A stretch of DNA of 64,000 nucleotides from Anaerolineae bacterium. GTDB taxonomy: Bacteria; Chloroflexota; Anaerolineae; CG2-30-64-16. The notes below the pieces were generated by a model. That model made no database searches and was not told where the DNA came from. It saw only the letters and a list, made by a program, of their open reading frames with translations. Shown in pieces: positions 6,004 through 48,612 of this stretch. Each line of letters begins with the position of its first letter. The first letter of the stretch is position 1. The stretch is from NCBI GenBank assembly GCA_040772005.1, contig JAXGYZ010000002.1, positions 573,061-637,060 on the forward strand. Reading direction: 5' to 3'. A program made the position numbers and the translations under genes.

Positions 6004-6312
6004 ATGCTCGTCGTGCGTGATGTCTTTCAGGCGAAGTACGGCCGTGGCGATGAGCTGGTGGCCCTGTTCCAGGAACTGGACGGCTACTGGCACCAGTCCA
6101 TGCGCAGAGTGCCATTTCGCAACTTCCGGATTCTCACGGACGCCAGCGGTCCGTTTTTTACCGTCGTGACCGAGATGGAAGTGGATACTATGGCGGCCTG
6201 GGAAGAGGTTGTGGCCAAAGAGCTTGCGCTGCCGCAGTTCGGGGATTGGTTTGCGCGCATGGCGCCGCTCGTCGAGACGGGCCGCCGCGAGTTTTATCAC
6301 CTGGTTGGATAG
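6004..6312 (+). CDS. Small hypothetical protein (about 102 aa; possibly dimeric alpha/beta-barrel, ABM/Dabb-like)
   Basis: AGGAGG RBS 7 nt upstream of the ATG at 6004. Fold assignment is a weak guess from sequence character. Confidence 0.5.
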   Translation: MLVVRDVFQAKYGRGDELVALFQELDGYWHQSMRRVPFRNFRILTDASGPFFTVVTEMEVDTMAAWEEVVAKELALPQFGDWFARMAPLVETGRREFYHLVG

Positions 6313-6435
6313 ATCGCTTCACGATTGTGCGCGGGCCACATCCTTCGACTGGTGACTGTGGGCCGGCGAGGTTGAGCCGTACACCCGCTCAGGATGCTCC
6401 GCGCATCTGGATTTGCTGATAGTGCGGGGTTGAGA

Positions 6436-6464
6436 TTGGCCCCTGCATCCGGGGGGTGCTATAA
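6436..6464 (+). promoter_or_regulatory. Putative promoter TTGGCC-17-TGcTATAAT (extended -10) for gdh
   Basis: Read from the sequence. Implies a ~130-nt leader containing a 12-bp hairpin (6524-6562). Confidence 0.45.
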
Positions 6465-6596
6465 TTTGTCCTACCAGCGATGGTGCAATCAGCATAGGCT
6501 TCGCCCAAATGCTGAATATAAACGCGGAGTGCGGCCGCCTCCCCTGGCAGCCGCACTCCCGCAAATCCCTGCAATGGAGCAAGGAAGGAGTCACTC

Positions 6597-18465: not shown

Positions 18466-19989
18466 TCAGTTCTGCGAAAGGCTTGTCTGCACTAACTTCT
18501 TCATCCACTGTTGTTTTCTCTGTGGTAGTCGCTTGCTCAATGCCACGATTCCTGCGGCGAATAGGACAGGATACAAGAACCCTGGGCTTAGATAGCGATA
18601 GGTCACAAGGAGCCAAACGGCCAGCATCGCGCCGACCGCAAATTGGTAAGGGTCCTCGGCATAAGACACACGGGAGAGGAATCTGTCACACCTTACTGAA
18701 ATGAAGGCAAGGATAACGCCAATCATGATGGGCCCTAGCCAGCCCCAACTCATGTAATATTGACCCACAATGCCTGGGAAGGTATTACCAGATTCTGTAT
18801 AGATATCAATTCCCCAACGCATCAGGGTGTAGAACCACGCCACCTCGGTGGCGGGCTTATTTTCCCACAGGAAACGCGGGATGGGGGAGACTGCGAATTG
18901 AAGCAGGGCACTCTCCCGAAAATAGTCATGATAGCTTGGTACTATTGCTACTGCGAGGGCAGTTTCAGAGAAGTAGTCGGTTGTACCGCTGAGTGTTGCC
19001 CAGTTGTCCAAAAGCAGATCGGCCGTCTCATATCGAGTGTAGCTGTATCGGAAGAGGAGTTGAAACTGCAACGCAAAAAACAACACTATGGTAAGGATCA
19101 ATAAAACCGTAGTTGCATAAAACTTTGAGCGAGTCCAGGCTCTAGTGAATAGGAGAACAATGGCCGGGAGTAACATCATGGCTGTTAGTGAGCGTGTTCC
19201 CTGATCAAAGAAGAGAAGAACGGTAACGATCGATGCTACGAATGCACCTGCGATGCGCAGGCCGATTTTCACTCTTTTATCTTGTAGAACAACAAGAAGT
19301 AGACCTGCACCGGCTGTCATGGCACTTCTGGTCAGGTATAGGACTGCGCTGATGCGATTGCCCAGATTCTCCGTATACGTCCACGGTTTATCAACGGCTC
19401 GACTTTCCAAAATGCTACCAACAATGTCCCGAAAAGACATGCCTGATAGCAGATATGGAAGGAAGCCTATCGCACAGGCCAAAAGGGCTATCGTTACCAG
19501 CACAGCAGGGTTGCTAGATGACACTGGTTGCTGCTCGGGGCTGTTGCGGCTCTGACGCCCGAATAATCGCGATGCTAGTACCCAGACGAAGAGAAACAGG
19601 GCAAGGTAAAGTATTGTAAGAAGGAGGGTTTCTTCGTGGATGAATATCGGTAGTTCATCACTGAATCCGCTTGATGTCGTCCACAGGTTGAGTAGTCCGG
19701 GCAATGAATACCATCCCACGAAGCCAAGCATAATCATCAGTCTGCCCCATCGACGTGACTGGATACTCGGCATTGCGTGCTTTAGCAGGAGAGAAAGAGA
19801 AGCAGAAAAAAGCACAGCAGTGAGGAGACGAAGTGTAGTGTCGCCATGCGCTTGTAATACTACGGATATCAGTGCAGCAATGAGGGGCAGGGCAGCTAAC
19901 CAAAAATCGAAGAGCATCTGACGAAAACCGCTCTTCCTGTCGGCACTCAATCGGCGCTTAGATGGCACTGCACGCACCAGAGGAGTCAT
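18466..19989 (-). CDS. O-antigen/EPS polymerase-like polytopic membrane protein (Wzy-like)
   Basis: About 12 predicted TM segments with a large loop; position within the glycan operon; low GC. No diagnostic motif, so the call is by context. Confidence 0.5.
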   Translation of the reverse strand: MTPLVRAVPSKRRLSADRKSGFRQMLFDFWLAALPLIAALISVVLQAHGDTTLRLLTAVLFSASLSLLLKHAMPSIQSRRWGRLMIMLGFVGWYSLPGLLNLWTTSSGFSDELPIFIHEETLLLTILYLALFLFVWVLASRLFGRQSRNSPEQQPVSSSNPAVLVTIALLACAIGFLPYLLSGMSFRDIVGSILESRAVDKPWTYTENLGNRISAVLYLTRSAMTAGAGLLLVVLQDKRVKIGLRIAGAFVASIVTVLLFFDQGTRSLTAMMLLPAIVLLFTRAWTRSKFYATTVLLILTIVLFFALQFQLLFRYSYTRYETADLLLDNWATLSGTTDYFSETALAVAIVPSYHDYFRESALLQFAVSPIPRFLWENKPATEVAWFYTLMRWGIDIYTESGNTFPGIVGQYYMSWGWLGPIMIGVILAFISVRCDRFLSRVSYAEDPYQFAVGAMLAVWLLVTYRYLSPGFLYPVLFAAGIVALSKRLPQRKQQWMKKLVQTSLSQN

Positions 19990-19995
19990 GCTGGC

Positions 19996-21021
19996 CTACT
20001 CACAGTCAACTTCTGTGTTCTCTCGACTACTAGTAGCATCGAGCAAGGATTCTACTTCATGTATGATGGAGGGCTCCTCAGTGGTTGATATGGTTTTCAG
20101 CCTGCTATGAGCAGATCGATAACAGCCTTTCATGATCTCTAGGCGAGCCAGTTCTAGTTCAAGCGGGGCATACTTGGTTGCCAGTTGACTTCCTGCCTTA
20201 AGAATCTGCCAGGCTCGTGCTACATCTCCATTCTCTAGTAAAGCCTTAGCAGTCCAAAAGTAGGTTGCTGGCTGACTATCATCTAGCTCCAGCGCGTGAA
20301 GAAAATGTATGATAGCCTTCTCAGTTTCGCCATGAAGAAGTTCTTTCTGTCCGAGCAGTGACTCAGAGGTCACGCTATGCTCGACCGCTTCAAAACTCTC
20401 ACACGGATCTAGAATAATGCTGCTCTCACCGGTGCGAATAGCTTCCATGCACAGATACATATACATATGAGACTTGCGAGCATCCAGTGTGGGGTCGATG
20501 TCTTGTGCAATTTGAAAGTATTGTTTGGCAGCATCTTCATCATGATCGAGTTCGATCTTAAGCCTCCCTTGCCCGACGTACCAAAGAGCTGAATCAGGGG
20601 TGAACTGTCGGAGTGTCAAGGCTTCTTCTGCCTTGCCCTGAGCTTCTAGAACTTGGCTGAAGTAAATGATGTCGGCTTCGTCTGGTGTTAGTCCACGTGA
20701 AAGGGCAAAGCGAAGCCAATTTGCCAGCACTTCACTACTCTCACATGACAGGAATAGGTAGCGCGTCAGCCGATACTTGCTAGTCGGCTGTGTCTCCATT
20801 GGTGGGGTCCTCAAAGAGGCTTCGTTGGATGGACAGAGTAATCGCTTGGACTCCTGAGATAGGAGCGGCCATATCCCGGGTACATGATGGGGCAAACTGG
20901 AGCGCATTACAGACAAAGTTCGGAATGAAAGACGCAGAGTGTCCCAGGGAAAGCCAAGGACGGTAATACTGCATGCAACGAATATCGCGACGAGCGAAAT
21001 GAAGAACCGGCGATCAGTCAT
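19996..21021 (-). CDS. Hypothetical membrane-anchored protein with TPR-like repeats
   Basis: Single N-terminal TM (FFISLVAIFVACSITVLGF), then helical repeat region. Start ambiguous (21021, 21033 or 21057). Confidence 0.45.
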   Translation of the reverse strand: MTDRRFFISLVAIFVACSITVLGFPWDTLRLSFRTLSVMRSSLPHHVPGIWPLLSQESKRLLCPSNEASLRTPPMETQPTSKYRLTRYLFLSCESSEVLANWLRFALSRGLTPDEADIIYFSQVLEAQGKAEEALTLRQFTPDSALWYVGQGRLKIELDHDEDAAKQYFQIAQDIDPTLDARKSHMYMYLCMEAIRTGESSIILDPCESFEAVEHSVTSESLLGQKELLHGETEKAIIHFLHALELDDSQPATYFWTAKALLENGDVARAWQILKAGSQLATKYAPLELELARLEIMKGCYRSAHSRLKTISTTEEPSIIHEVESLLDATSSRENTEVDCE

Positions 21022-22216
21022 TGCGCAGTCCATCTTTGTTGCTGATGCTAGTTGCATCGATGATCTGCCTGACAGCTTCTCGAAAGCTTCGGCGGAAGGT
21101 TTCGGGTGAGTAGCGAGTGTCGGTTGCGTGCAGCACCTTTTCTGCGCGCCGACGGCAGTCGTCTGGGCTGGCGGTACTAGTCTCAACGATCACTGAGCGA
21201 ACAGCCGCGACTGTCAGTGATTCGATGCGGTAGCCCCAGTCTTCCAGGTCGATATTTGCTGTGACCGGCAGGATGGGTATCAGCCCATGCGCCATGCACT
21301 CGATGACAGAGCCGGGCTGTCCTTCCGCACAGGTCGGCAGAATCACCCAATTGCACATCGCGGCCAGTTTTCTGAACTCCGGCGACCGCATCTTCACGTA
21401 ACCATGGACATGAACATTTCTGTTCCCGCTGAGTTCAGCAGCAAAGGCACGAGCGAACTCGGGCTGAATGTGCTGGCAGACGTGAAGGTGGAGGTCGGTG
21501 TCGTGAAAGGCCTGGAGCAGCAGGTCAAGCCCCTTGTGAACATTCCCGAGACCACTGAAGAACAAGAAATGCTTCCGCCCTGCCTCAAAATCCTTTTCAG
21601 CCAAGTTGATGCCATCGAGGGGATAAGCTGCGTTGCATACGGATACTACATTCTTGAGATGAGCAAAAGTCTGCGCCGCAGCTTCGTTCCCCAGGCAGAT
21701 CGTGCCATCTGACAGCCGGTGTGCCTCCTCTTCTATCGGTGAGCTGACACGCTCCGGGGGCAGCAGCACGCCCTTGCTAAGCGCGATATCAAAGAGACGT
21801 TGTGCGGCGCGAGTGTTTTGTTCGCGCCAATACAAGCCGGTTGCAAAGTAGACCGTGACGGGTCGATGGCTGAGTAAGCCGACTAGACGGGTAAAATTGA
21901 AGTTCGCATGCCCGATGAAAAGGTCGTAAGCGCGCGTAGGAATCCAACTCTGGTTGGTACAATCCACGATATCGACTTCGAACCCTAGTTCGTTCAGCGC
22001 ACGAGGTATTTCCCTGGCGAGTCCCTGATTGCTGAACTGCGCGGGATCGCGAAATTTTGCTGGCAAGAGGAGAGGATGGACAAGATACGATACGAGCGCT
22101 CTGCGACTGGGAGTGCCCATACAGTATTCGCGGTAACCGCGGACTGTTCGGCGCTTAAGAAGCGCATAGAGGTATTCAAGGACTGCCGCACGCGGCTTTT
22201 GAGTACCTTCTTTCAC
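21014..22216 (-). CDS. Glycosyltransferase (GT-B fold, GT1/GT4-like)
   Basis: C-terminal EGQPGSVIECMAHGLIPI motif. GTG start overlapping the upstream stop (GTGA); an ATG at 22120 is an alternative start. Confidence 0.55.
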   Translation of the reverse strand: MKEGTQKPRAAVLEYLYALLKRRTVRGYREYCMGTPSRRALVSYLVHPLLLPAKFRDPAQFSNQGLAREIPRALNELGFEVDIVDCTNQSWIPTRAYDLFIGHANFNFTRLVGLLSHRPVTVYFATGLYWREQNTRAAQRLFDIALSKGVLLPPERVSSPIEEEAHRLSDGTICLGNEAAAQTFAHLKNVVSVCNAAYPLDGINLAEKDFEAGRKHFLFFSGLGNVHKGLDLLLQAFHDTDLHLHVCQHIQPEFARAFAAELSGNRNVHVHGYVKMRSPEFRKLAAMCNWVILPTCAEGQPGSVIECMAHGLIPILPVTANIDLEDWGYRIESLTVAAVRSVIVETSTASPDDCRRRAEKVLHATDTRYSPETFRRSFREAVRQIIDATSISNKDGLRND

Positions 22217-23580
22217 GACTTCAAGTCCAAGTCGGATAAAATCTGCGCGCGTGTTGCGGATTCACTATTATCATTGCTCGAGGCATGCCAGCGCGCTCGT
22301 GAACGTTGGAATATCCACACAGTAATCGGCAGTTCGAGGAGTACAAGCACGCCTAGATATCCAGCACCTACACCTGTGGCTCCGTATGAGGGAGCCAATA
22401 ACAAAGCGAGAGCGGCGATCACCATACTTCCTACCAGAAACACACCCATCAGTGGTTCGCGCTTGTGGGCCCTCAAGTAGGTGGATAGGCCAGAAAGCAC
22501 AGAACTCACCACCCCCGCGATGAGGAAGACGCCGGCGGGGCCGGGCGGCAATACTCTGCTCGCCAATGGATGCTGCAAGCCCTCCAGAAGCAAGATGAGT
22601 CCCCAGGCGCCCAGCGCCAGGACTAGACCTATTACAAGGGACATGAACAACGAGCGAAAAAACGAACTATCCAGCTCACGCCACTTCCGCTCGGCTACAA
22701 GAACACCATAGCGTGGCGCCTTTGTCACGACCCAGTTCGATGACATAGCCATTACGACGTTGGCGAGGGTGTTTGTCATTCCCATTTGACCAGCCACAGC
22801 CGGGCCGGCGCTCCGGAAGAGCACGGGGGTAAAGAGCTGGCTGGTAAAATATGTGCTGATCCAACTGACCGCAATACGCCATTGTATGGGCCAAACATCC
22901 TGCCGCCAAGCAATCCTGGGCCCATCGGGTGATATCAAGAAAGCCCGGCAGAATGCTGCGTAGCGATGGAGAAAGAAGACACTCCAGACCAACCCACACG
23001 CAGAAGCCAGTGGCAAAGTCCACAGCTTCGCGCCGGAGATAATCGCGGCCCACAGCGCCAGGCCGTTAACGACTTGTTGAACCAACCTATAAAACCAGAA
23101 TGGTGCGACCTCATTGCAGCCCTGCAATAGGTAAAAGAGGGGAGTCAGACATAAGTTCAGCCCTAAACCCAAACACAGGGCCAGCCACGGCAGTTGCCAT
23201 TCGATGCCAGGAGTCGGCGTGCGAGAAAAAAACGCGTAACCACCTGCACCGAGTCCCAGAACGACCAGAACCGCGGCGACACTATACCACTTCATGGATA
23301 GGCGACCCAGACTAATGAGTCGTGAACGCGCTGCTGCGTCTCCCTCAATGCGGAAGCCCGGTGCGAACTTCAGGCGTGCCCACTCATGACTTGCAAACTG
23401 AATGATAGCCTGACCAAGGCCCAGCTCGACAAGAAACTGTAACGCTGTAAGGCTGCCAAAGGTATAGTAATATCCTTGAAGTTCGGGCGTGAAACGCATT
23501 GCGATGAGCAGGGCAGTTATCGGGCCCAGAACAAGGGAAACCAGATTGCCGAGCAGCGCGAACGCCACTGCGCGATCCAT
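22213..23580 (-). CDS. Polysaccharide/O-antigen flippase (Wzx; MOP/MATE-like exporter superfamily)
   Basis: 14-TM topology typical of PF01943 family. First gene of the low-GC island. ATG at 23580 chosen over the TTG at 23607. Confidence 0.7.
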   Translation of the reverse strand: MDRAVAFALLGNLVSLVLGPITALLIAMRFTPELQGYYYTFGSLTALQFLVELGLGQAIIQFASHEWARLKFAPGFRIEGDAAARSRLISLGRLSMKWYSVAAVLVVLGLGAGGYAFFSRTPTPGIEWQLPWLALCLGLGLNLCLTPLFYLLQGCNEVAPFWFYRLVQQVVNGLALWAAIISGAKLWTLPLASACGLVWSVFFLHRYAAFCRAFLISPDGPRIAWRQDVWPIQWRIAVSWISTYFTSQLFTPVLFRSAGPAVAGQMGMTNTLANVVMAMSSNWVVTKAPRYGVLVAERKWRELDSSFFRSLFMSLVIGLVLALGAWGLILLLEGLQHPLASRVLPPGPAGVFLIAGVVSSVLSGLSTYLRAHKREPLMGVFLVGSMVIAALALLLAPSYGATGVGAGYLGVLVLLELPITVWIFQRSRARWHASSNDNSESATRAQILSDLDLKS

Positions 23581-23654
23581 GTCCGCGCGACGGAGGAGAT
23601 TCAGCAATCGGGCACACCGATCAATTCACAAGGAGTTGCTGGTTCCACGGGTTC

Positions 23655-24530
23655 TCACCCCAGCCCCGTCTCCGCCAGCCGGATCAAATACTGGCCGTAC
23701 TCGTTGCCGCGCATCAACTGCCCCTGGGCGAGCAGCGCGTCGCGCGTGATGTAGCCCATCCGGTAGGCGATTTCCTCGGGGCAGGAGATCATCATGCCCT
23801 GCCGCTCCTGGACGGCCTGGACGAAGCCGCTGGCCTGCAGGAGCGTCTCGTGCGTGCCGGCGTCCAGCCAGGCGACGCCCCGGCCCATCTGGTCGACGCG
23901 CAACTGGCCGCGCTCCAGGTAGGTGCGGTTGATGTCGGTGATCTCGATCTCGCCGCGCGCGGAGGGGCGCAGGTTGGCCGCGATGTCGCTCACCTGGTCG
24001 TCGTAGAAGTAGAGGCCGGGCACGGCATAGTGCGACTTGGGGGCCTGCGGCTTCTCCTCGATGCTGATGGCGCGGCCGGACGCGTCGAACTCGACGACGC
24101 CGTAGCGCTGCGGGTCCCTGACCGGATACGCGAAGACGAGCGCGCCCTCGGTCAGGCCGGCCGCCGCGCGCAGTTGGGCGGGCAGGCCGTGGCCGTAGAA
24201 GATGTTGTCGCCGAGGATGAGGCAGGCCGGCTGGCCGGCGACGAACTCGCGGCCGATGATGAAGGCGTCGGCCAGGCCGCGGGGGGTGGGCTGCTCGGCA
24301 TACGCGAAGTGCAGGCCCCACTGGTCGCCCCCGCGCAGGAGCGTGCGGAACGCGGGCAGGGCCTCCGGTGAGCTGATGATGAGGATGTCGCGGATGCCCG
24401 CCAGCATGAGCATGGAGAGCGGGTAGTAGATCATCGGCTTGTCGTAGACCGGCAGCATCTGCTTGCTGACGGCCATCGTCAGGGGATAGAGCCGCGTCCC
24501 CGCCCCGCCGGCCAGGATGATACCTTTCAT
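23655..24530 (-). CDS. rfbA: Glucose-1-phosphate thymidylyltransferase
   Basis: [18 protein letters not shown]...; the C-terminal region matches RmlA throughout. Confidence 0.9.
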
Positions 24531-24539
24531 GACGCCTCC

Positions 24540-25104
24540 CCGAATAGGACACTGATTGAACTGATTGGACTGATCTTCATGTTCTTTTCAGATTCGGCTT
24601 CAGGTGATTCTCGAAGATCTTGCGCACAACGCGAGGCTTGGGACCGAAGTTGACGACCAGTCCGACCTCATAGGGCGTGGCTTTCAGATAGTTCAGCAGC
24701 TGCGCCGCATGGTCCGGTGATATCTCGCTGGCAGCCTTGAGCTCCAACAACACGAGGTCGTTCACGACGAGGTCGGCAAAGTACTCACCCACGATACAAC
24801 CGTCGAAGAACACCGAGATCGGCCGCTGCTGCTGAACCTGCAGGCCATGCGCCCGGAGCCGCATGGCGAAGGCATTCTCATAGACCTTCTCCAGGAAGCC
24901 ATAGCCCAGGGCGTTGTAGACGTCGTAGAATATCTGGATTATCTGCCGGGTCAGCGCACTGTGCTTGTAAGTGGAGACCTCGTACGAACCCCGTTCCTCG
25001 TCCAGTTCGATCATGGTCACATCACTCATAAGACTGATGACGCTAACTTATCAGAATCAGATCAGGTAAATCAGCGTCATCAGTTCAATCAGCGTCCTAT
25101 TCGG
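24540..25104. mobile_element. 565-bp cassette bounded by 24-bp inverted repeats CCGAATAGGAC(A/G)CTGATTGAACTG, carrying a GxxExxY-family gene
   Basis: Left repeat at 24540-24563; right repeat at 25081-25104 is its reverse complement (23/24 identical). The interior is AT-richer than the flanking rfbA and sat. Confidence 0.5.
24577..25029 (-). CDS. GxxExxY protein (PD-(D/E)XK nuclease-like superfamily, TIGR04256-type)
   Basis: [13 protein letters not shown]... and [14 protein letters not shown] core. About 150 aa, typical of the family. Confidence 0.65.
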
Positions 25105-25114
25105 CGTTCTATTA

Positions 25115-26920
<1,806 letters not shown>

Positions 26921-27679
26921 TTACAGAGACAGGATGAGCGTGCGCACGTTCAGCACGACGATCACCAGGCCGACCAGCAGCATGAACGGCTTGTGCGGCA
27001 GCCTCTTCGCCACAATGGCGGCGAGCGGTGCAGCCAGCGCGCCGCCGATCAGCAGGCCCAGGATAATCTGGCCGTACTGCAGAAACTCGCCGGAGCCCAG
27101 CGCCAGGATGAACGTCAGGGACTGGGCCGTGGTCACGAAGAACTCGGTCATGTTGACCGAGCCGACGGTGAAGCGGGGCGAGTTTCCGCGTGCTACCAGG
27201 GTCGATGTGACGATCGGCCCCCAGCCGCCGCCGCCGATGGCATCCATGAAGCCGCCGAACAGGGCCAGCGGCGCCAGCCAGGACCGGACCGTGCGCGGGG
27301 CCAACGCGCGGAAGGCCCGATAGATGATGACCAGGCCCATGACGGCCAGATACACGGCCACATAGGGTTTGATGATAGCGCCGTCGATTTCGGTCAGCAG
27401 GTACGCGCCTATCACGCCGCCGAGCATGCCGGGCAGCATCAACTGCTTCGCCAGGTCCAGATGGACATTGCCAAGCCGCCAGTGCGAGAAGCCCGAGATG
27501 CCCGTGGTCACGACTTCCGAGGCGTGGACTGCGGCGCTGGCGAAGCGCTGCGGGACGCCCAGGCTGTTCAGGATGGTGGTCGAGCTGACGCCGTAGGCCA
27601 TGCCCAGAGCGCCGTCGATCATCTGTGCCACGAAACCGACGACGACGAAGGCCCAGATCGGGATATCCTGAATGTCCAT
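26921..27679 (-). CDS. Sulfite/anion exporter TauE/SafE family membrane protein
   Basis: DUF81-type duplicated 4-TM halves with G-rich motifs. Next to the sulfate activation gene. Confidence 0.75.
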   Translation of the reverse strand: MDIQDIPIWAFVVVGFVAQMIDGALGMAYGVSSTTILNSLGVPQRFASAAVHASEVVTTGISGFSHWRLGNVHLDLAKQLMLPGMLGGVIGAYLLTEIDGAIIKPYVAVYLAVMGLVIIYRAFRALAPRTVRSWLAPLALFGGFMDAIGGGGWGPIVTSTLVARGNSPRFTVGSVNMTEFFVTTAQSLTFILALGSGEFLQYGQIILGLLIGGALAAPLAAIVAKRLPHKPFMLLVGLVIVVLNVRTLILSL

Positions 27680-36121: not shown

Positions 36122-36202
36122 GTTCTTTCTCCGATACAAACGCGCACCGCGGGATACACGGATCACGCGGAAGCCGGTTTGCTGTTTTGCCGTTGGCGGT
36201 CC

Positions 36203-36235
36203 GCCCGCATTTGAGAATGCGGGCTCCTCCTTTTT
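36203..36235 (+). terminator. Orphan intrinsic-terminator-like hairpin + T5 on the plus strand (gcccgcat-ttgaga-atgcgggc tcctccTTTTT)
   Basis: No annotated plus-strand gene ends here. Possibly the 3' end of a small RNA transcribed from 36125-36235. Confidence 0.4.
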
Positions 36236-36274
36236 CGCTCGAAAGATGCGGAACGGCCCCGGACGCGTCCGCCG

Positions 36275-41685: not shown

Positions 41686-42867
41686 ATGCCCGAACCATCG
41701 GTCCTGGGGGTCTTCGGTGCGGTGATTCTCGCGCGGCTGCTCCTGCCGCTGCTGATCCCGAAATATCCGCTGCCCGCGATCCTCCTCTGCCTCCTCGTGG
41801 ACGGGGTGGACCAGACCGTCTTCCAGACTTTCACGAACGTGCCGCTCGACGGCTATCAGAGCTTCGACAAGGCGCTCGACATCTATTACCTGGTCATCGC
41901 ATATCTCTCGACGCTGCGCAACTGGCGGAACAGCCATGCATTCGGCATCAGCCGTTTTCTGCTCTATTACCGGCTCGTCGGCGTCGTGCTGTTCGAGCTG
42001 TCGGAGTGGCGGCCTCTGCTGCTCATCTTCCCGAACACTTTCGAGTACTTTTTTATTTACTACGAGGCTGCGCGCAGCGGGTGGCACGCGTCGCGGCTCT
42101 CGCGCCGGACACTGCTCCTGGTAGCCGGGGGCATCTGGGTGTTCATCAAGCTGCCGCAGGAGTGGTGGATCCACATCGCGCAACTCGACGTGACCGACCT
42201 GGTCAAGACCAAGCTGTTCGGCGCAGCGGCCAATGCATCCTGGGGCGAGGCCGTCGCAGCCGCGCCACTCGTCCTGGCCGCGCTGCTCGCTACGGTGCTG
42301 CTGCTGGCGTTCGCCGCCTGGCGGCTGGTCATTCCCCGGCTGCCGCGGCCGGAGCACTCGTTCAGGCTGTCGGCGGGCCCGCCGCCCGCGGCCGCGGACA
42401 CCGCGGAGGAACGCCGCACCATCTTCGCCTACACGCGGCGGCCGTTGGACCGCATCGCGCTGGAGAAGGTCGTGCTCGTGACCCTGGTCACGCTGATTTT
42501 TGCGCAAATCCTGCCCGACTTGCAGTCGAGCAACCTGCGGCTGGCGCTGGGCGTGACAGTCATCGCGCTCATCAATTCGGTGGCGAGTTACGGACTGGCG
42601 CACCGCGGCTACGGCTGGCAGAACGCGCTCGTGCATTTCGCCGTACTTGGCACGGTGAACGCCGGTGTCGCGGCTGTCGCTTACCTGCTGTTCGACCTCG
42701 GCCGGCCCATCAACCTGGGGGATGCGTTGTTCCTGTTGCTGCTGCTTACATTGCTGGTCACGCTCCACGACTACTACCAGCCGATGCACGCGGTGCGGTT
42801 CGACGCAGAGGCGCGGGCGGCGAGCGCGATGGTGGGCGAGGGCGGACGATTGAAGATTGAAGATTGA
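41686..42867 (+). CDS. Hypothetical polytopic membrane protein (393 aa)
   Basis: GGAGTGG RBS. About 9 predicted TM segments. The C-terminal ...GGRLKIED* and stop codon are supplied by the GATTGAA repeat. Confidence 0.55.
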   Translation: MPEPSVLGVFGAVILARLLLPLLIPKYPLPAILLCLLVDGVDQTVFQTFTNVPLDGYQSFDKALDIYYLVIAYLSTLRNWRNSHAFGISRFLLYYRLVGVVLFELSEWRPLLLIFPNTFEYFFIYYEAARSGWHASRLSRRTLLLVAGGIWVFIKLPQEWWIHIAQLDVTDLVKTKLFGAAANASWGEAVAAAPLVLAALLATVLLLAFAAWRLVIPRLPRPEHSFRLSAGPPPAAADTAEERRTIFAYTRRPLDRIALEKVVLVTLVTLIFAQILPDLQSSNLRLALGVTVIALINSVASYGLAHRGYGWQNALVHFAVLGTVNAGVAAVAYLLFDLGRPINLGDALFLLLLLTLLVTLHDYYQPMHAVRFDAEARAASAMVGEGGRLKIED

Positions 42868-42877
42868 AGATTGGAGA
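42848..42877. repeat. GATTGAA heptamer repeat (4.3 units) spanning the stop of the upstream gene and the RBS of the next
   Basis: gattgaagattgaagattgaagattggaga. Confidence 0.6.
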
Positions 42878-43537
42878 ATGGAAACGAACATGAGCCGGTT
42901 AGATTTGTTGGCACAGATTCGGGAGCAGGTGGGGGAGCGGCTGGAGGATGGTCGGGTGCAGGGGCGCATGACTTTCTGCATCGAGGACGGCGCGCGGCTC
43001 GGCCCGGAGGCGCGGGAGCCTGCCGGTTACCGCCACGGTTCGCACTTTCACCCGCGCGCGTTCATCTTCGACCCCGTCACGCGGTTCGAGTTCCGGCCCG
43101 ACGGCGAGCTGCTACACTTTGCGGTGGGCGGGCTGCTGTGGCGGGAGGAAGGGGACGGGCCGCGCTACTGCCTGTTCCGGCGGCGGATGCACCCGACGGG
43201 CTATTACACGCTGCCGGCGGGCCACCTGGAACTCGGTGAGACGCCGGACCTGACGCTGCGCCGCGAGGTGTACGAGGAGACCGGCCTGGCAGTGCTCTCC
43301 GCGGAGCTGCTGTTCGAGGGCGAGCTGCCGGACGACTGCCGCCGCGGGGCAGATTACCACTACTGGCACGCGTACCTGTGCCGCTGCATCGGGGAGCCGG
43401 CGCTCTGCAACGAGTCGGACATCGTCGGGTGGTACACGCGTGCAGAGATCCTGCGCGACCTGCCGCTGACCTACCCGACCGGCGTGATTTGCGAGCGGCT
43501 GTTCGGTGAGTGGCCGGGCCGCGTGCGGGGGAGATAA
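42878..43537 (+). CDS. NUDIX hydrolase
   Basis: Nudix box GHLELGETPDLTLRREVYEETGL. Start at 42878 (GGAGA RBS) or 42890. Confidence 0.65.
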   Translation: METNMSRLDLLAQIREQVGERLEDGRVQGRMTFCIEDGARLGPEAREPAGYRHGSHFHPRAFIFDPVTRFEFRPDGELLHFAVGGLLWREEGDGPRYCLFRRRMHPTGYYTLPAGHLELGETPDLTLRREVYEETGLAVLSAELLFEGELPDDCRRGADYHYWHAYLCRCIGEPALCNESDIVGWYTRAEILRDLPLTYPTGVICERLFGEWPGRVRGR

Positions 43538-43626
43538 CCACGGAAGACGCGGAGCACACGGAATGACAAAATAATCTATCTGTTCCGCGTGCTCCGCGTC
43601 TTCCGCGGTTCCTATGGAGCAATCCG

Positions 43627-46600
43627 ATGGCTGATCCGCTTGACAGTTTTTCGCCGCCGGTGGCGCGGTGGTTCCGCGGGGCGTTCGGGCAGCCGACCGC
43701 GCCGCAGGCCGCGGGCTGGCCGCCCATCCAGCGCGGAGAGCACACGCTCATCCTCGCGCCGACCGGCTCAGGCAAGACGCTGGCCGCGTTCCTGTGGAGC
43801 ATCGACGAGATTTACCGGGAGCTGGCCGAAGACCGGGATCGCACCGGCGTGCGCCTGCTCTACGTCTCGCCGCTGAAGGCGCTCAACAACGACATCGAGC
43901 GCAACCTGCGCGCGCCGCTGGCGGGCATCCGCGCAACCGCAGAGGCCTTAGGTCAGCCGCTTCCGCCGCTGCACGTCTCCGTGCGCACGGGCGACACCCC
44001 GGCCGCGGCCCGCCAGGCGATGGTGCGCAAGCCGCCGCACATCCTCATCACCACGCCGGAATCGCTCTACCTGATCCTGTCCAGCCCGCGCGCCCGCGAT
44101 ATGCTCAAGACCGTGCGGACGGTCATCGTGGACGAAATCCACACCCTCGTCGGGGAGAAGCGCGGGGTCCACCTGACGCTCAGCCTCGAACGGCTCGAAC
44201 ACCTCGCCGGGCGACGCATCCAGCGCATCGGGCTGTCCGCGACCGTGCGCCCGCTGGAGGAGGCCGCGCGGTTCCTGGGGGGTCAGACGTTCGACGCGCT
44301 GCCGGACGGCGAATCGACAAACGCAGCCGGGACTCCGCGGTCCGGGGAGGCTGAGGCTGCGCCAACACCCCGGCCCGTGACCATCGTGGACACGGGTTAC
44401 CGGAAGCCGCTCGACCTGGAGGTCGTGACGCCGGTGGAGGACTTCCGCAACCTGCCCGGCACGACCATCTGGCCGACCGTCATCCCGCAGGTGCTGGGCG
44501 ACGTGATGCGCCACCGCTCCACGCTCATCTTCGCCAACAACCGCCGGCTGGCGGAGCGGACCGCGGACCGGCTCAACGCGCAGATTGCCGCGGAACGGTC
44601 GGAGGAAATTCCGCCGGGCAGCACCGAGGCGCTGGCGCCGGGCGGCATCGCGCGCGACCGCGGCATGTTCGCGATCGGCGCGGAGGGGCCTATCCGCGCG
44701 CACCACGGCAGTATGTCGCGCGAGGCGCGGCGCGATATGGAAGAAGACCTCAAGGCAGGGCGGCTTCCCGCGCTGGTCAGCACGGGCACGCTGGAACTGG
44801 GCATCGACATCGGCATGGTGGACCTGGTCATCCAGCTCCAGTCGCCCAAGAGCGTGAGCCAGGGGCTCCAGCGCGTCGGGCGGTCGGGCCACATGGTAGG
44901 GCAGACGAGCCGCGGGCGCATCTACGCGACGCACCGCGAGGACCTCGTGGAGGCGGCAGCCGTCGCGGCCGGGATGCGCGCGGGGGATGTCGAGGAGACG
45001 AGCACCCCGCGCAACGCGCTGGACGTGCTGGCCCAGCAAGTGCTCGCGGCCGTCTCGGTGGAGCCGTGGGACGCCGATGCGCTCTACCGGCTCGTCCGGC
45101 AGGCGTATCCGTACGCAGACCTGGCCCCGCGCGCATGGGAATCCGTGCTGGCGATGCTGTCGGGCCGCTTCCAGGGGGTCAGCGGCGTCGGCCACCCGTC
45201 GCTGCGCGCGCGCATCTCCTGGGATCGCATCAACAACGGGCTGGCGACGCTGCCCGGCGCGCGGCTGCTGGCACTCAATAACCCCGGCACCATCCCCGAC
45301 ACCGGCGCGTATGATGTCTACCTCGCTGACGGGAAGACGCGCGTCGGCACGCTGGATGAGGAGTTTATCTTCGAGACGCGGCCGGGCGACACCTTCCTCC
45401 TGGGGTCGAGCGTCTGGCGCGTCATGGCAATCGAGAACGACCGGGTAGTCGTCTCCGATGCCGCAGGGCATTTGCCGCGGATGCCGTTCTGGCACGGCGA
45501 TTATCCGTGGCGGCCCTACGAACTGGGCGTGCGCATCGGGCGGCTGCGCCGCGAGGTGGCGACGCAGGTCCGGCTGTACCAGAACGAACCGGAGAAGGTC
45601 ATTGCGTCGCTGCGCGAGGCTTACCTGCTGGACCGTAACTCCGCGGTCAATCTGTATGATTACGTCAACCGCCAGCTCGATGTGCTCGGCAGCATCTCGT
45701 CGGACGAGGAAATCATCATCGAGACGTTTGCGGATGCCGTGGGCGAGGCGCGCGCGGTCGTGCACTCACCGTTCGGCGGGCGCATCAACGGCGCGTGGGC
45801 GCTGGCGCTGGCGGACGCGCTGCGCGAACGGACGGGCGTGGACGTGGAGACGCAGGTCAACGACGACGGCATCCTGCTGCGCTTCCCCGGCGCCGCGCTC
45901 AGTGAGCTTAGCCTCGCGCCGGGCATTGCGACCGAGGCGGAGTCGCTCCATGCGCTGCGCGAGGCGGCGGGCGAGGGAGAGGTGACGCAGCCAGGCATCA
46001 TTTCGCCCGCGCACATCATCCGCCGGATGGGCGTGGACGAGGCGCGGCGGCGCATCCTGCGCGAGCTGCCCAACTCCGCGGTGTTCGGCGCGCGGTTCCG
46101 CATGAACGCGGCGCGAGCGCTGCTGCTGCCGCGGTCACGCGGGCACAAACGCACCCCGTTCTGGCTGCAGCGGCTCAAGGCGCGTGACCTGCTGGCCGCG
46201 GTGCGCAACCAGCCCGACTTCCCGATCATCGCGGAGACGTACCGCGACTGCCTGCGCGATGTGCTGGACCTGGAGCATCTCAACGAGGTGCTGCAGGGCA
46301 TCGAGGAGGGGCGCATCCGGGTGACCGCGGTCGAGACTGCTACACCGTCGCCGCTGGCCGCGGGCCTGCTGTATGCGTTCGCCAGCGTGTATATGTATGA
46401 GTGGGACACGCCGCAGGCTGAACGGCAGTTGCAGGAGCTGGCGCTCAGTCGCGAGCTGGTGGATGACCTGCTGGCGGGTGCGGGCTCGGGGCGGCTGCCG
46501 CTCAGGCCGGAGGCCGTGGCCGAGGTCACGGACGGGACCGCGCGGCCCGCGCGCACCGCGGATGAGCTGGCCGTGCTGCTGCTCCAGATGGGCGACCTGA

Positions 46601-48612
46601 CGGCAGCCGAGGTCGCCGCGCGGGCGGGCGAGGACGCCGTGCCGTGGCTGGCGGAACTGGCTGCGGCGGGCCGTGCGGTGGAGCTGGACCTGCGCACCGC
46701 GCACGGCAGCGAGCGGCGGTGGGTGGCCGCGGAACTGGCCGGGGAGTATGCGGGGCTGCTGGCGGACGCATCCGCCGGCGAGACCGACGCAGCCGAGGGC
46801 CTGACAGCCGTCCTGCAGCGCTACCTGCGCTCCGCCGGGCCGGTGACGCGCGAGGAGATCCTCGGCCGGTACGGGTTTGGGGAGGACTGGCTCACCGCGA
46901 CGCTGGACCGGCTCGTCGCCGCGCGCGAGCTGGTGCGCGGGCGGTTTGCATCCGAACGTTCGGCTGGGGACCAGTACTGCGACCGGCTCCTGTTCGAGCG
47001 GCTGTATCGCCGCACGCTGACGCTCCTGCGGCGGGAGGTTGCGCCCGTACCGCTGGAGGCATTTGCCGCGTTCCTCCTGCGCTGGCAGGGGACCGGGCCG
47101 GCGCGGCGCACGGAGCCTGACGCGACCGCCGCGGCGGTCGGGCAGTTGCGCGGTCTGGCGTTGCCGATGGCCGTGTGGGAGCGCGAGGTGCTGCCCGCGC
47201 GCGCGGCCCGCTACCGTGCGGCCGCGCTCGACGAGCTGCTGCGCAGCGGCGCGCGCGCATGGGTCTGCGCAGGCGGCGACGCCAAGCGCGCTGGTGGCGC
47301 CGCGCAGCGCGCCAACGTGCGCTTCGTCGGTCGCGGGGAGGGCGGGCTGTTCCTGCGCGACTTCCCCGTGGCGCTGCCCGATGCTGGGCTGGCGGACCCG
47401 GCCGACCGCGCCGCGGCCGCGATCTTCGGCTACCTCAAGGCGGAAGGCGCGTCGTTCGTGGCGGACCTCGCAGCGGGGCTGGGCCTGACGCCGGCCGCGC
47501 TGCGCGGCGGGCTCACGCGGCTGGCGCTGGCCGGGCTGGTCACCGGCGACAGCCTCGCGGCGTTGAGCGCGGTCCTGGATGAACCGGGAGCGTCGCGCGA
47601 GCGGCAGACCGGCGAGGGAATGCTCAGCGGGCTGGCCGCAGAACTGGCTGCCCGGCGACCGGGCCGCGGCAGGCGGGGGATGACGCGGCCCACACGCGAG
47701 AGCCTGTACGCGGCACAGCGCCGCGTGGAGGCGCGGCTGGCCCCGGATGAGCCGCGCGAGGGCGAAGGGTGGAGCGGGCGCTGGTCGGTCGTGAGCCGGG
47801 CCGCGGTGTTCGGGCCGCCGCGCAGCGCCGAAGACCGGGCGGCCGCGCTGGCGCCGCTGCTGCTGGCGCGCTACGGCGTGCTCACGTCCGAGCTGGTCGC
47901 ACGAAGCGAGAGCGCGTGGGCCTGGCTGGCGGGCGGGGAGGACAGCCCTGTCCTCCCGCAGCCGGCCGAGGCCGCGCTCGACTGGAATCCGCTGTACATG
48001 CAGTTGCAGCGGATGGAGCTGCGCGGGGAGGTGCGCCGGGGGTACTTCGTGCAGGGGCTGTCGGGCGTGCAGTTCGCACTGCCCGAGGCGGTGGAGGGGC
48101 TGCGCGCGAGCCGCGACACGCTGTACGGCGACGAGAGCGTGACCTGCCTGGTGAGCCTGGACCCGGCGAACCTGTATGGCGGGGAGGCGGGCGGGATAGG
48201 GCGCGGGCAGGGCGATCCTGCGACTGGAAGCTGGGGTCCTTCGACTGGAAGCTGGGGTCCTTTTGCTGCGGACGAGGCTTCAGCTTGGGCACGGTCAGAA
48301 ACTGGCCCCAGCGAGTTGTCCAATGGGCTGTATCGTTTCGCAAGGGTGCCTTCGACGCATGTGGTGTTGTGGCGGGGGAGGCCGGTGCTGCTGGCGGAGG
48401 ACAACGGCGCGCGGCTGACTGCGGCGGGGGTCGGGGAGGGCGTGCTCAGGGCTGCGCTGCGGGCGTACCTGCAGCGCCCCGGTGCGCCGAAGCGCACGAG
48501 CATTGCGATGTGGAACGGCGCGGACGTGCTCGGCAGCGCGGGCGAACCGCTGCTGCGCGGGCTGGGCGGCTCGCGCACGCCGGTGGGGATCGATGTGTGG
48601 TTGGAGGCGTGA
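43627..48612 (+). CDS. lhr: ATP-dependent helicase Lhr (large helicase-related, superfamily 2 DEAH)
   Basis: LAPTGSGKT Walker A; VIVDEIHTL DEAH box; 1661 aa with a long Lhr-type C-terminal extension. Confidence 0.85.
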   Translation: MADPLDSFSPPVARWFRGAFGQPTAPQAAGWPPIQRGEHTLILAPTGSGKTLAAFLWSIDEIYRELAEDRDRTGVRLLYVSPLKALNNDIERNLRAPLAGIRATAEALGQPLPPLHVSVRTGDTPAAARQAMVRKPPHILITTPESLYLILSSPRARDMLKTVRTVIVDEIHTLVGEKRGVHLTLSLERLEHLAGRRIQRIGLSATVRPLEEAARFLGGQTFDALPDGESTNAAGTPRSGEAEAAPTPRPVTIVDTGYRKPLDLEVVTPVEDFRNLPGTTIWPTVIPQVLGDVMRHRSTLIFANNRRLAERTADRLNAQIAAERSEEIPPGSTEALAPGGIARDRGMFAIGAEGPIRAHHGSMSREARRDMEEDLKAGRLPALVSTGTLELGIDIGMVDLVIQLQSPKSVSQGLQRVGRSGHMVGQTSRGRIYATHREDLVEAAAVAAGMRAGDVEETSTPRNALDVLAQQVLAAVSVEPWDADALYRLVRQAYPYADLAPRAWESVLAMLSGRFQGVSGVGHPSLRARISWDRINNGLATLPGARLLALNNPGTIPDTGAYDVYLADGKTRVGTLDEEFIFETRPGDTFLLGSSVWRVMAIENDRVVVSDAAGHLPRMPFWHGDYPWRPYELGVRIGRLRREVATQVRLYQNEPEKVIASLREAYLLDRNSAVNLYDYVNRQLDVLGSISSDEEIIIETFADAVGEARAVVHSPFGGRINGAWALALADALRERTGVDVETQVNDDGILLRFPGAALSELSLAPGIATEAESLHALREAAGEGEVTQPGIISPAHIIRRMGVDEARRRILRELPNSAVFGARFRMNAARALLLPRSRGHKRTPFWLQRLKARDLLAAVRNQPDFPIIAETYRDCLRDVLDLEHLNEVLQGIEEGRIRVTAVETATPSPLAAGLLYAFASVYMYEWDTPQAERQLQELALSRELVDDLLAGAGSGRLPLRPEAVAEVTDGTARPARTADELAVLLLQMGDLTAAEVAARAGEDAVPWLAELAAAGRAVELDLRTAHGSERRWVAAELAGEYAGLLADASAGETDAAEGLTAVLQRYLRSAGPVTREEILGRYGFGEDWLTATLDRLVAARELVRGRFASERSAGDQYCDRLLFERLYRRTLTLLRREVAPVPLEAFAAFLLRWQGTGPARRTEPDATAAAVGQLRGLALPMAVWEREVLPARAARYRAAALDELLRSGARAWVCAGGDAKRAGGAAQRANVRFVGRGEGGLFLRDFPVALPDAGLADPADRAAAAIFGYLKAEGASFVADLAAGLGLTPAALRGGLTRLALAGLVTGDSLAALSAVLDEPGASRERQTGEGMLSGLAAELAARRPGRGRRGMTRPTRESLYAAQRRVEARLAPDEPREGEGWSGRWSVVSRAAVFGPPRSAEDRAAALAPLLLARYGVLTSELVARSESAWAWLAGGEDSPVLPQPAEAALDWNPLYMQLQRMELRGEVRRGYFVQGLSGVQFALPEAVEGLRASRDTLYGDESVTCLVSLDPANLYGGEAGGIGRGQGDPATGSWGPSTGSWGPFAADEASAWARSETGPSELSNGLYRFARVPSTHVVLWRGRPVLLAEDNGARLTAAGVGEGVLRAALRAYLQRPGAPKRTSIAMWNGADVLGSAGEPLLRGLGGSRTPVGIDVWLEA
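48221..48262 (+). repeat. Perfect 21-bp tandem duplication inside lhr (encodes TGSWGPS-TGSWGPF)
   Basis: cgactggaagctggggtcctt occurs twice in tandem. Confidence 0.6.

Follow-up and report, generated by a model that had tools for sequence, protein, structure and literature searches.

In the 64,000-nucleotide stretch of the Anaerolineae contig JAXGYZ010000002.1 analysed here (the window), a 565-bp unit lies between the genes sat and rfbA, carries a single gene of the GxxExxY family, and is bounded by inverted arrays of short sub-repeats. What might explain why such a gene is held between such arrays? The explanation that we favour, although we rate its chances a little short of even, is that the unit is one copy of a widespread selfish, operon-embedded cassette, whose nuclease recognises the bounding arrays and whose gene-less relatives are non-autonomous derivatives. 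A cassette of this kind would follow the stop codon of one operon gene and precede the ribosome-binding site of the next gene, oriented with the operon and expressed by read-through transcription. We infer that the GxxExxY protein, probably as a dimer or higher oligomer, would bind the helically phased sub-repeats of both arms and cut the DNA at or beside them, and that host repair or recombination would then move or copy the unit. The same action in trans on gene-less array pairs (65-120-bp hairpin modules) and on solo arms would make these the non-autonomous derivatives, in the way that REPINs relate to the repetitive extragenic palindrome (REP)-associated tyrosine transposases (RAYTs).

Exact boundaries of the cassette and turnover at its site

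The first-pass annotation had described 24-bp inverted repeats around a single 150-aa GxxExxY open reading frame (ORF), inserted between rfbA and sat, and this anatomy holds. Reading of the sequence and a repeat finder agree on a match of 23 of the 24 positions between 24540-24563 and 25081-25104, and the repeat finder extends the inverted repeat to 46 nt at 80%, with the arms 473 nt apart. When up to three mismatches are allowed, the 24-mer occurs at only two sites in the window, which are the two arms themselves; it appeared in 0 of 100 shuffles of the window, and beyond the window its exact form was found only in L002, a syntenic copy. The ORF at 24577-25029 (minus strand) is the sole credible one between the arms, and the public annotation (P0121) starts it at 25014, giving a protein of 145 aa. 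Its immediate neighbours are on the same strand, a sat/APS-kinase fusion upstream (25115-26857) and rfbA downstream (23655-24530), and the genes nearby are sat, rfbA, TauE and UDP-glucose dehydrogenase, with no CRISPR-cas or helicase context and no integrase. With a GC content of 53.5%, the cassette is AT-richer than rfbA (69.2%) and sat (67.5%), as had been noticed. The flanks had also been described as studded with CTGAT/ATCAG repeats. The enrichment is real, with eight such words in 25022-25121 and three in 24542-24641 against 116 across the 64 kb, but the words are not scattered: they are concentrated at the cassette ends, where they form the cores of 9-nt tandem sub-repeats (Table 1). No promoter-like or terminator-like site was found in the cassette, the terminator scan having covered 24300-25300, and an Rfam covariance-model search returned only a chance-level match (E = 0.89) outside the cassette.

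Homologues of sat were used to recover the same gene neighbourhood in relatives, and the spacer between sat and rfbA was found in five states, comprising four filled occupants in close relatives and one empty site. The window and L002 hold the window's cassette. In L080 and L083/L084 (sat 94-97% identical to that of the window) the GxxExxY protein is 59-60% identical to that of the window and the right arm is duplicated or triplicated, whereas in L081 and L085 (sat 87-88%) the protein is 38% identical and the array word is CACGAAT / GCGAATT. L082 (sat 88%) has a gene-less array pair of ~85 nt, and the outgroup loci L086 and L087 (sat 80%) have an empty, 22-nt spacer, so that relatives do possess cassette-free sat-rfbA junctions of the kind that the first-pass annotation had envisaged. 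Every filled state has its element at one position, after the sat stop codon and before the rfbA ribosome-binding site. Sliding nucleotide identity between the window and L083 is 93-97% through sat to 25121, falls to 40-70% over 25120-24547, and returns to 92-100% from 24546, and these break points coincide with the repeat ends. The junction at the cassette/rfbA end, which reads ...CTATTCC on one side and AGGAGGCGTCATG on the other, is common to the window, L002, L080 and L083. These alignments support the cassette as a discrete unit with a history unlike that of its flanks, as had been proposed. The 8 nt ATAGAACG outside the 5' arm are probably a remnant of an earlier occupant, because they are identical to the left-end start (ATAGAACGCTGAT...) of the different cassette present at the same site in L080 and L083.

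In the same operon, a TauE/SafE gene (26921-27679 in the window, between the UDP-glucose dehydrogenase gene and sat) is also present in L081-L087 and missing from L002 and L080, both close relatives, and is therefore a second presence/absence polymorphism.

Table 1. Positions of the cassette features, its boundaries and related repeats in the window
Feature	Position	Strand	Sequence or remark
Left 24-mer	24540-24563		CCGAATAGGACACTGATTGAACTG
Right 24-mer	25081-25104		reverse complement of CCGAATAGGACGCTGATTGAACTG
5' (upstream) arm	25050..25104	-	sequence read, inverted and direct repeats
5' arm, terminal unit	25104-25097	-	CCGAATAG
5' arm, 9-nt sub-repeat	25096-25088	-	GACGCTGAT
5' arm, 9-nt sub-repeat	25087-25079	-	TGAACTGAT
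5' arm, second copy of GACGCTGAT	25078-25070	-	GACGCTGAT
5' arm, 9-nt sub-repeat	25069-25061	-	TTACCTGAT
5' arm, two partial CTGAT units at its end	25060-25050	-	
Internal hairpin, 5' leader of gene	25033..25084	-	forward sub-repeats pair with a partial reverse array, AGCGTCATCAG (25044-25034)
GxxExxY / PDDEXK_3 ORF	24577..25029	-	150 aa from first ATG; stop TGA 24577-24579
3' (downstream) arm	24540..24574	-	ATCAGTCCA ATCAGTTCA ATCAGTGTC CTATTCGG; three reversed sub-repeats plus terminus
8 nt outside 5' arm	25105..25112	-	ATAGAACG; junction comparison
sat/cysC stop codon, 10 nt upstream of cassette 5' end	25115..25117	-	left boundary
rfbA ribosome-binding site GGAGG (24535-24539) and start codon (24528-24530), directly 3' of cassette	24528..24539	-	right boundary
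Gene-less module	43536..43610	+	28-nt arms (AACCACGGAAGACGCGGAGCACACGGAA and reverse complement, 26/28), 19-nt loop
Solo array, three sub-repeats	36148..36178	+	CACCGCGGGAT ACACGGAT CACGCGGAA; intergenic, beside terminator-like hairpin ~36200-36240

Arrays with and without the gene

The comparison set comprised ~80 loci of other genomes that encode relatives of the window protein (43-98% protein identity), mostly from Chloroflexota, with some from Bacteroidota, Acidobacteriota and others. In most of these loci the top inverted repeat between the 150-nt flanks beats every shuffle, and at least 53 of them have arrays on both sides that match and face inward. About three sub-repeats of 9-10 nt (GGAC-RC-N-GAT) make up an arm: a terminus, (A/T)AT(G/A)GGAC, is followed by three copies of the 8-nt word AC-R-C-N-GAT, spaced start to start by 10 nt and then by 9-10 nt, and the words face inward on either side of the gene. 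Forward words usually stand ~82 and ~72 nt ahead of the conserved domain, and the layout seen in the 5' arm of the window recurs upstream of GxxExxY genes of other genomes; reverse words usually stand ~2 and ~12 nt after the stop codon, and in most other loci the reverse array begins 0-40 nt past it. The expectation that other GxxExxY genes would be bounded by the same 24-bp inverted repeat is thus right for the family as regards inverted repeats and wrong as regards one specific 24-bp sequence, since what recurs is a sub-repeat array with a free position.

Six loci from cultured species, in five further phyla, have related arrays with clade-specific words. The word is CACAGAGGA in Bacteroides finegoldii (between radA and a FAD-dependent protein gene), CACAGAGA in Bernardetia (between ade and a mannose-1-phosphate guanylyltransferase gene) and CGCGAAGG in Sphingomonas parapaucimobilis (between fabD and fabG, with the right array within the ORF tail). 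Treponema saccharophilum has one word only, ACACGGATTCG, on either side of the gene, a Fusobacteria bacterium has an upstream copy oriented like the downstream arm, and in Gemmatirosa CGCGGAT words were seen downstream of the gene only. The association of arrays with GxxExxY genes spans at least seven phyla, with the words changing.

The ends can be amplified in tandem: the right arm is present three times in L080 (~6290-6490) and twice in L083 (~6290-6430), and at least six tandem forward arrays precede the GxxExxY gene of L018 (1-320). On the metagenome contigs L150, L169, L185 and L230, CACAGAG-type (Bacteroidota-like) arrays abut ACGCAGAT-type arrays, so that different array families coexist within one genome.

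Gene GC is lower than flank GC in 78 of 80 loci, by a mean of 11 points. Both neighbours are co-oriented with the gene in 39 of the 47 informative loci (p = 1e-16 against an expectation of 25%), at least one of the exceptions being an ORF-calling error, and in the five loci of cultured organisms that have annotated genes, the two neighbours share the cassette's strand. Upstream, the stop codon of the host gene is usually 0-10 nt before GGAC (39 loci among L001-L079), and in 16 of these 39 it is at or within the array, as the TAG of ATAGGAC, the TGA of GCTGA, or a TGA or TAA in the array; the downstream gene starts a median of ~20 nt past the right terminus. Stops in at least two frames are present in 28 of 43 forward arrays, compared with 36% in shuffles, and in nearly none of the reverse arrays, which GxxExxY ORFs sometimes read through.

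Do the arms look like a protein-binding motif or an RNA stem? When arm was compared with arm in 51 loci with clear arms, there were 1580 matches and 130 transversions, and the G:U-compatible mismatches were divided almost equally between those permitted in sense RNA (59) and those permitted in antisense RNA (55); nor was there any tendency in these loci towards compensatory change between arms. Because the mismatches have no G:U bias, a conserved RNA stem for the long-range repeat is not favoured. Thirty loci with canonical triple arrays, whose proteins are 50-65% identical and whose flanks are unrelated, were examined for the free position of the word: N agrees between arms in 54% of cases, against 34% from composition, and it varies within an arm too, whereas most other array positions match. 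On these comparisons a conserved protein-binding motif fits the arms better than an RNA stem, and words that recur at about one helical turn with a free position suggest that several protein subunits may sit on one face of duplex DNA.

The arrays are not confined to the gene. The fetched loci contain palindromic modules of 65-120 nt (forward array, loop, reverse array), both beside cassettes and in other intergenic spacers. The one in the window is placed between the stop of ORF 42857-43537 and the start of ORF 43627-48612, folds with -50.4 kcal/mol (z = -10.7), and has words (ACGCGGAG / CACACGGAA) unlike those of the cassette. The hairpin in the leader of the GxxExxY gene, with an RNA fold of -34.9 kcal/mol (z = -5.0), is in effect a small gene-less palindromic module 5' of the gene, and comparable forward-plus-reverse modules precede the gene in L080, L083, L005, L006, L008 and L020. 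A metagenome scan with a pattern for one arm type, chosen without regard to genes, gave 126 arms on 120 contigs (689 kb). A GxxExxY ORF adjoins four of these arms (~3%), at least 56 are gene-less palindromic modules, and the rest are mostly modules with a degenerate partner or solo arms. Since the repeats are ~30 times commoner without the gene than with it, the gene-bearing cassette is the minority form of a dispersed repeat family; the original picture of a miniature gene cassette is apt for a discrete repeat-bounded unit, but not as the usual form.

When array pairs do enclose a gene, it is nearly always this one. Among all sequences collected, 53 of the 67 forward/reverse pairs that are 200-1600 nt apart enclose a GxxExxY ORF, and no other plausible cargo family was found between array pairs, the remaining 14 being antisense artefacts or chance pairs round ordinary genes. 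In L070 and L036 a neighbouring gene-less module is nearly identical to the cassette's own arms, idiosyncratic features included, and there is a weak tendency for distal modules to resemble the cassette of the same locus, convincing in five loci and absent in three. A BLAST search of plasmids with the consensus array gave chance-level matches only.

Phage genomes carry the same arm pattern, on 28 stretches of viral contigs with no GxxExxY ORF in those fragments. Some of these arrays are palindromic modules, and others are lone forward arrays that precede a gene by 10-60 nt, share its orientation and have no inverted partner (L089 at 2934, 8240 and 9018; L108 at 119 and 494; L113 at 4072, 4809, 5899 and 6777). 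The genes behind the single arrays encode, according to PHROGs, a head maturation protease, head closure protein (Hc1), tape measure, tail assembly chaperone and Neck1. Orientation was judged from PHROGs-confirmed genes only, a test based on the longest ORF having been discarded after it clashed with hand-checked cases in GC-rich DNA. GxxExxY genes are present on two viral contigs: apparent arrays are read through in the ORF tails of both, and in one of them a clear forward array precedes the gene.

The GxxExxY protein and its likeness to known systems

The window ORF matches PF13366 (PDDEXK_3) with 131 bits (cut-off 22), which is its only Pfam match, and TIGR04256 (GxxExxY) with 125.3 bits (cut-off 35). 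The GxxExxY motif reads GFLEKVY, and the PD-(D/E)XK signature D...ExK is also there. The positions anticipated in an active site of the RecB family are retained: among 39 homologues there is no variation at G39, at E42 in the GxxExxY helix, or at D81, K93, Q105 and Y109, while Y45 and E91 reach at least 90% conservation. An AlphaFold model built from these homologues (pLDDT 87.5, pTM 0.80) has, in order, two helices, three strands, one helix and two strands, and the protein combines a RecB-like nuclease fold with a QxxxY motif. The nearest fold relatives of the model are DNA nucleases (Cas4, Dna2, lambda exonuclease, restriction enzymes), and splicing and cap-snatching endonucleases are also among its fold matches. 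From the model, the GxxExxY protein is predicted to be a Cas4/RecB-like PD-(D/E)XK nuclease with intact catalytic motifs. It has a single cysteine, and therefore no four-cysteine iron-sulfur cluster of the Cas4 type; its ~125 core residues and its own Pfam family likewise separate it from the Cas4/RecB nucleases.

The family is large, with 13,739 clusters at 50% identity (E <= 0.001) in a full HMMER scan of PF13366/TIGR04256. It includes tandem two-domain GxxExxY proteins of ~260 aa (P0241-P0245 and ~15 others), which are either fused dimers or neighbouring cassettes joined after loss of a stop codon, and such fusions would fit a dimeric enzyme. PDB sequence and profile searches found no solved structure of the family, and the window protein matches no PADLOC model, PHROGs model or cultured-phage record. 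A 2012 survey of the superfamily gave the function of PF13366 as 'Unknown' and noted 'multiple transfers' (PMC3424549). In the searchable library, mentions of GxxExxY, PDDEXK_3, PF13366 or TIGR04256 are scarce and none concerns the biology of the family. The searchable literature likewise has no description of the flanking arrays, although an earlier mention is possible in subscription-only papers and database family descriptions, which lie outside its scope.

The nearest known analogue is the REPIN/RAYT system (Bertels & Rainey 2011; PMC3116915, PMC3337134). In both cases inverted copies of a short repeat stand on either side of a small enzyme gene, that repeat is dispersed as gene-less inverted doublets, and the gene-less hairpin copies, which lie in intergenic and often intercistronic DNA, far outnumber the gene. 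The enzymes are different, however, GxxExxY being of the PD-(D/E)XK Cas4/RecB-like type and RAYT an HUH/Y1 (IS200/IS605-type) transposase, and the GxxExxY arm consists of three direct sub-repeats with a helical period, whereas a REP is a single hairpin. GxxExxY genes are also multi-copy, low in GC and exchanged between lineages, unlike RAYTs, which are typically single-copy and vertical. Several metagenome-assembled genomes have at least two GxxExxY copies in different contexts, and this, together with the replacement seen at the sat-rfbA site, argues against strict vertical inheritance.

Like insertion sequences and miniature inverted-repeat transposable elements, the GxxExxY units have terminal inverted repeats, one internal ORF, short gene-less derivatives that consist of ends only, presence/absence polymorphism and a foreign base composition. 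Unlike insertion sequences, they contain no transposase of a known class (DDE, HUH, serine or tyrosine) and no other ORF, no target duplication is readable at their termini, near-identical copies in several contexts did not turn up, and they are strictly operon-oriented, following a stop codon and preceding the next ribosome-binding site. IS200-type elements are among the smallest insertion sequences, and the GxxExxY unit, at ~500-565 bp, is smaller than these. Free-standing homing endonuclease genes are similar in being small low-GC nuclease genes between conserved genes with a patchy distribution among close relatives, and I-Ssp6803I, comparable by nuclease fold only, uses the PD-(D/E)XK fold for homing, but homing endonuclease genes are without bounding inverted repeat arrays and without repeat-only derivatives. 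Integron cassettes and the PeSL cassettes, which are repeat-flanked mobile cassettes of T4-type phages, are also short single-ORF units with no detectable promoter, bounded by repeats, oriented with transcription and exchangeable at a fixed site. In contrast, the GxxExxY units have no integrase or attI/attC nearby, have inverted arrays at both ends, and always carry a nuclease of the same family. Intervening sequences of 23S rRNA may carry an ORF for the four-helix-bundle 'IVS protein' family TIGR02436; such ORF-bearing sequences share with GxxExxY units the small ORF, the inverted repeats, the location inside a transcribed unit and the scattered multi-copy occurrence, but involve another protein family and another host site.

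It is possible, if doubtful, that GxxExxY cassettes represent an unrecognised class of autonomous mobile element, perhaps the smallest (~0.5 kb), in which a lone nuclease would mobilise itself and the hairpin modules of operons and phages by a chemistry unlike that of known transposases. The arrays give PF13366/TIGR04256 a testable context, the gene being almost always the cargo of a repeat-bounded intercistronic cassette, while bacterial and phage genomes harbour many more copies of the same repeats without the gene. Should the nuclease act on the arrays, it would join the RAYT tyrosine transposases as a second class of enzyme by which dispersed palindromic repeats are maintained, and the erratic placement of GxxExxY genes in housekeeping and polysaccharide operons would be explained. 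Annotation pipelines could recognise both the GxxExxY units and the gene-less hairpins, and the putative sequence-specific mini-nuclease and its 8-nt motif are open to direct characterisation with defined oligonucleotides (e.g. GGACGCTGATTGAACTGATGACGCTGAT).

Objections and competing explanations

Several points weigh against a selfish cassette that is moved by its own nuclease, a self-mobilisation that the first-pass annotation had raised as one option. The termini read (A)AT(A/G)GGAC...GTCC(T/C)AT(T), in which an AT duplication is indistinguishable from an extension of the inverted repeat, and the empty site of L086/L087 is not alignable with the filled sites, so that no target-site duplication is readable. 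The segment replaced at sat-rfbA includes the arrays, and ordinary homologous recombination between flanks after lateral transfer could therefore have produced the replacement with no element-encoded activity. Cassettes are often kept at orthologous sites (e.g. L004/L007/L011/L023), so movement is not frequent; no near-identical second copy of the window cassette turned up elsewhere, L002 being both the sole close copy and syntenic, and the 21-nt repeat core of the window cassette had no match in the metagenome scan. The link between array words and protein could reflect common descent of the whole cassette rather than recognition. The orientation-locked single phage arrays are not predicted by a transposon-end model and are left unexplained by it, and the searchable literature has no biochemical data on any member of the GxxExxY family.

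Could the gene-less module be the target of the nuclease rather than its derivative? In this homing variant, which we think unlikely, the nuclease would bind two adjacent arrays and cut between them, and repair from a gene-bearing copy would install the gene in the loop, with the arrays serving as homology. The inserted gene would then part the half-sites by ~450 bp and shield its own locus, as homing endonuclease genes do. Such a scheme explains why the gene is always between two arrays, where gene-less modules have their loop, and suits the abundance of gene-less modules in the same intercistronic position, including the sat-rfbA site of L082; PD-(D/E)XK homing endonucleases, such as I-Ssp6803I, exist. 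It leaves the spread of the gene-less modules unaccounted for, however, the homology arms of ~30 bp would be short, and the occupants of the sat-rfbA site differ in their array words (CGCTGAT versus CACGAAT), which is not expected from array-guided gene conversion.

The prospects of an RNA-level system are slimmer. The arrays would be cis-acting signals for processing, stability or translation insulation in polycistronic mRNAs, the GxxExxY protein would be a trans-acting RNA-binding nuclease with its own mRNA among the targets, and the dispersed arrays would constitute its regulon. Cassettes and modules are indeed intercistronic and co-oriented with operons, the single phage arrays are locked in orientation just 5' of real genes, the gene-less modules fold into very stable hairpins, and forward arrays are richer than shuffles in stops in at least two frames, with reverse arrays having nearly none. 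Some PD-(D/E)XK enzymes cut RNA, and the splicing and cap-snatching endonucleases among the fold matches are in keeping with this. Nevertheless, the nearest fold relatives are DNA nucleases, the arms are without wobble bias or compensatory change, and regulation at the RNA level does not by itself account for the low GC, the empty site, the replacement of cassettes or their presence in phages.

We consider it improbable that the arrays belong to a repeat family of the host or of phages (REP-like hairpins or regulator sites) that is independent of the gene and kept by some other factor, with GxxExxY genes merely lodging in the arrays, for example because hairpin loops are safe or prone to recombination. 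The small share of sampled arms that adjoin the gene (~3%) and the phage fragments that bear arrays without it would be natural consequences, but GxxExxY is the content of nearly all the longer forward/reverse pairs, with no other plausible cargo seen, the association persists across at least seven phyla with changing words, and the words differ among cassettes of the same genome and among close relatives at the same site, following the type of protein. It is still more improbable that the gene encodes an anti-phage defence nuclease flanked by repeats through chance. The small size of the nuclease, its scattered distribution, its low GC and its many paralogues would suit defence, as would arrays in phage genomes; yet there is no PADLOC match, the gene stands alone without a partner within housekeeping operons (fabD-fabG, radA), and a target motif beside its own gene would do harm to self-DNA. 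A local coincidence or a terminator hairpin of rfbA or sat, which the first-pass annotation had named as the refuting alternative, is excluded for practical purposes, because dozens of unrelated loci throughout the family have their GxxExxY gene set between inverted repeats, the two arms are separated by 473 nt that contain an ORF and no terminator-like site, and shuffling never reproduced the 24-mer.

Elsewhere in the window, the stretch 19000-23600 is also low in GC (47-57%, compared with 65% for the window) and contains genes for a group-1 glycosyltransferase, a 464-aa multi-pass protein without a Pfam match and an unclassified ORF, a composition typical of a laterally exchanged segment of a polysaccharide cluster.

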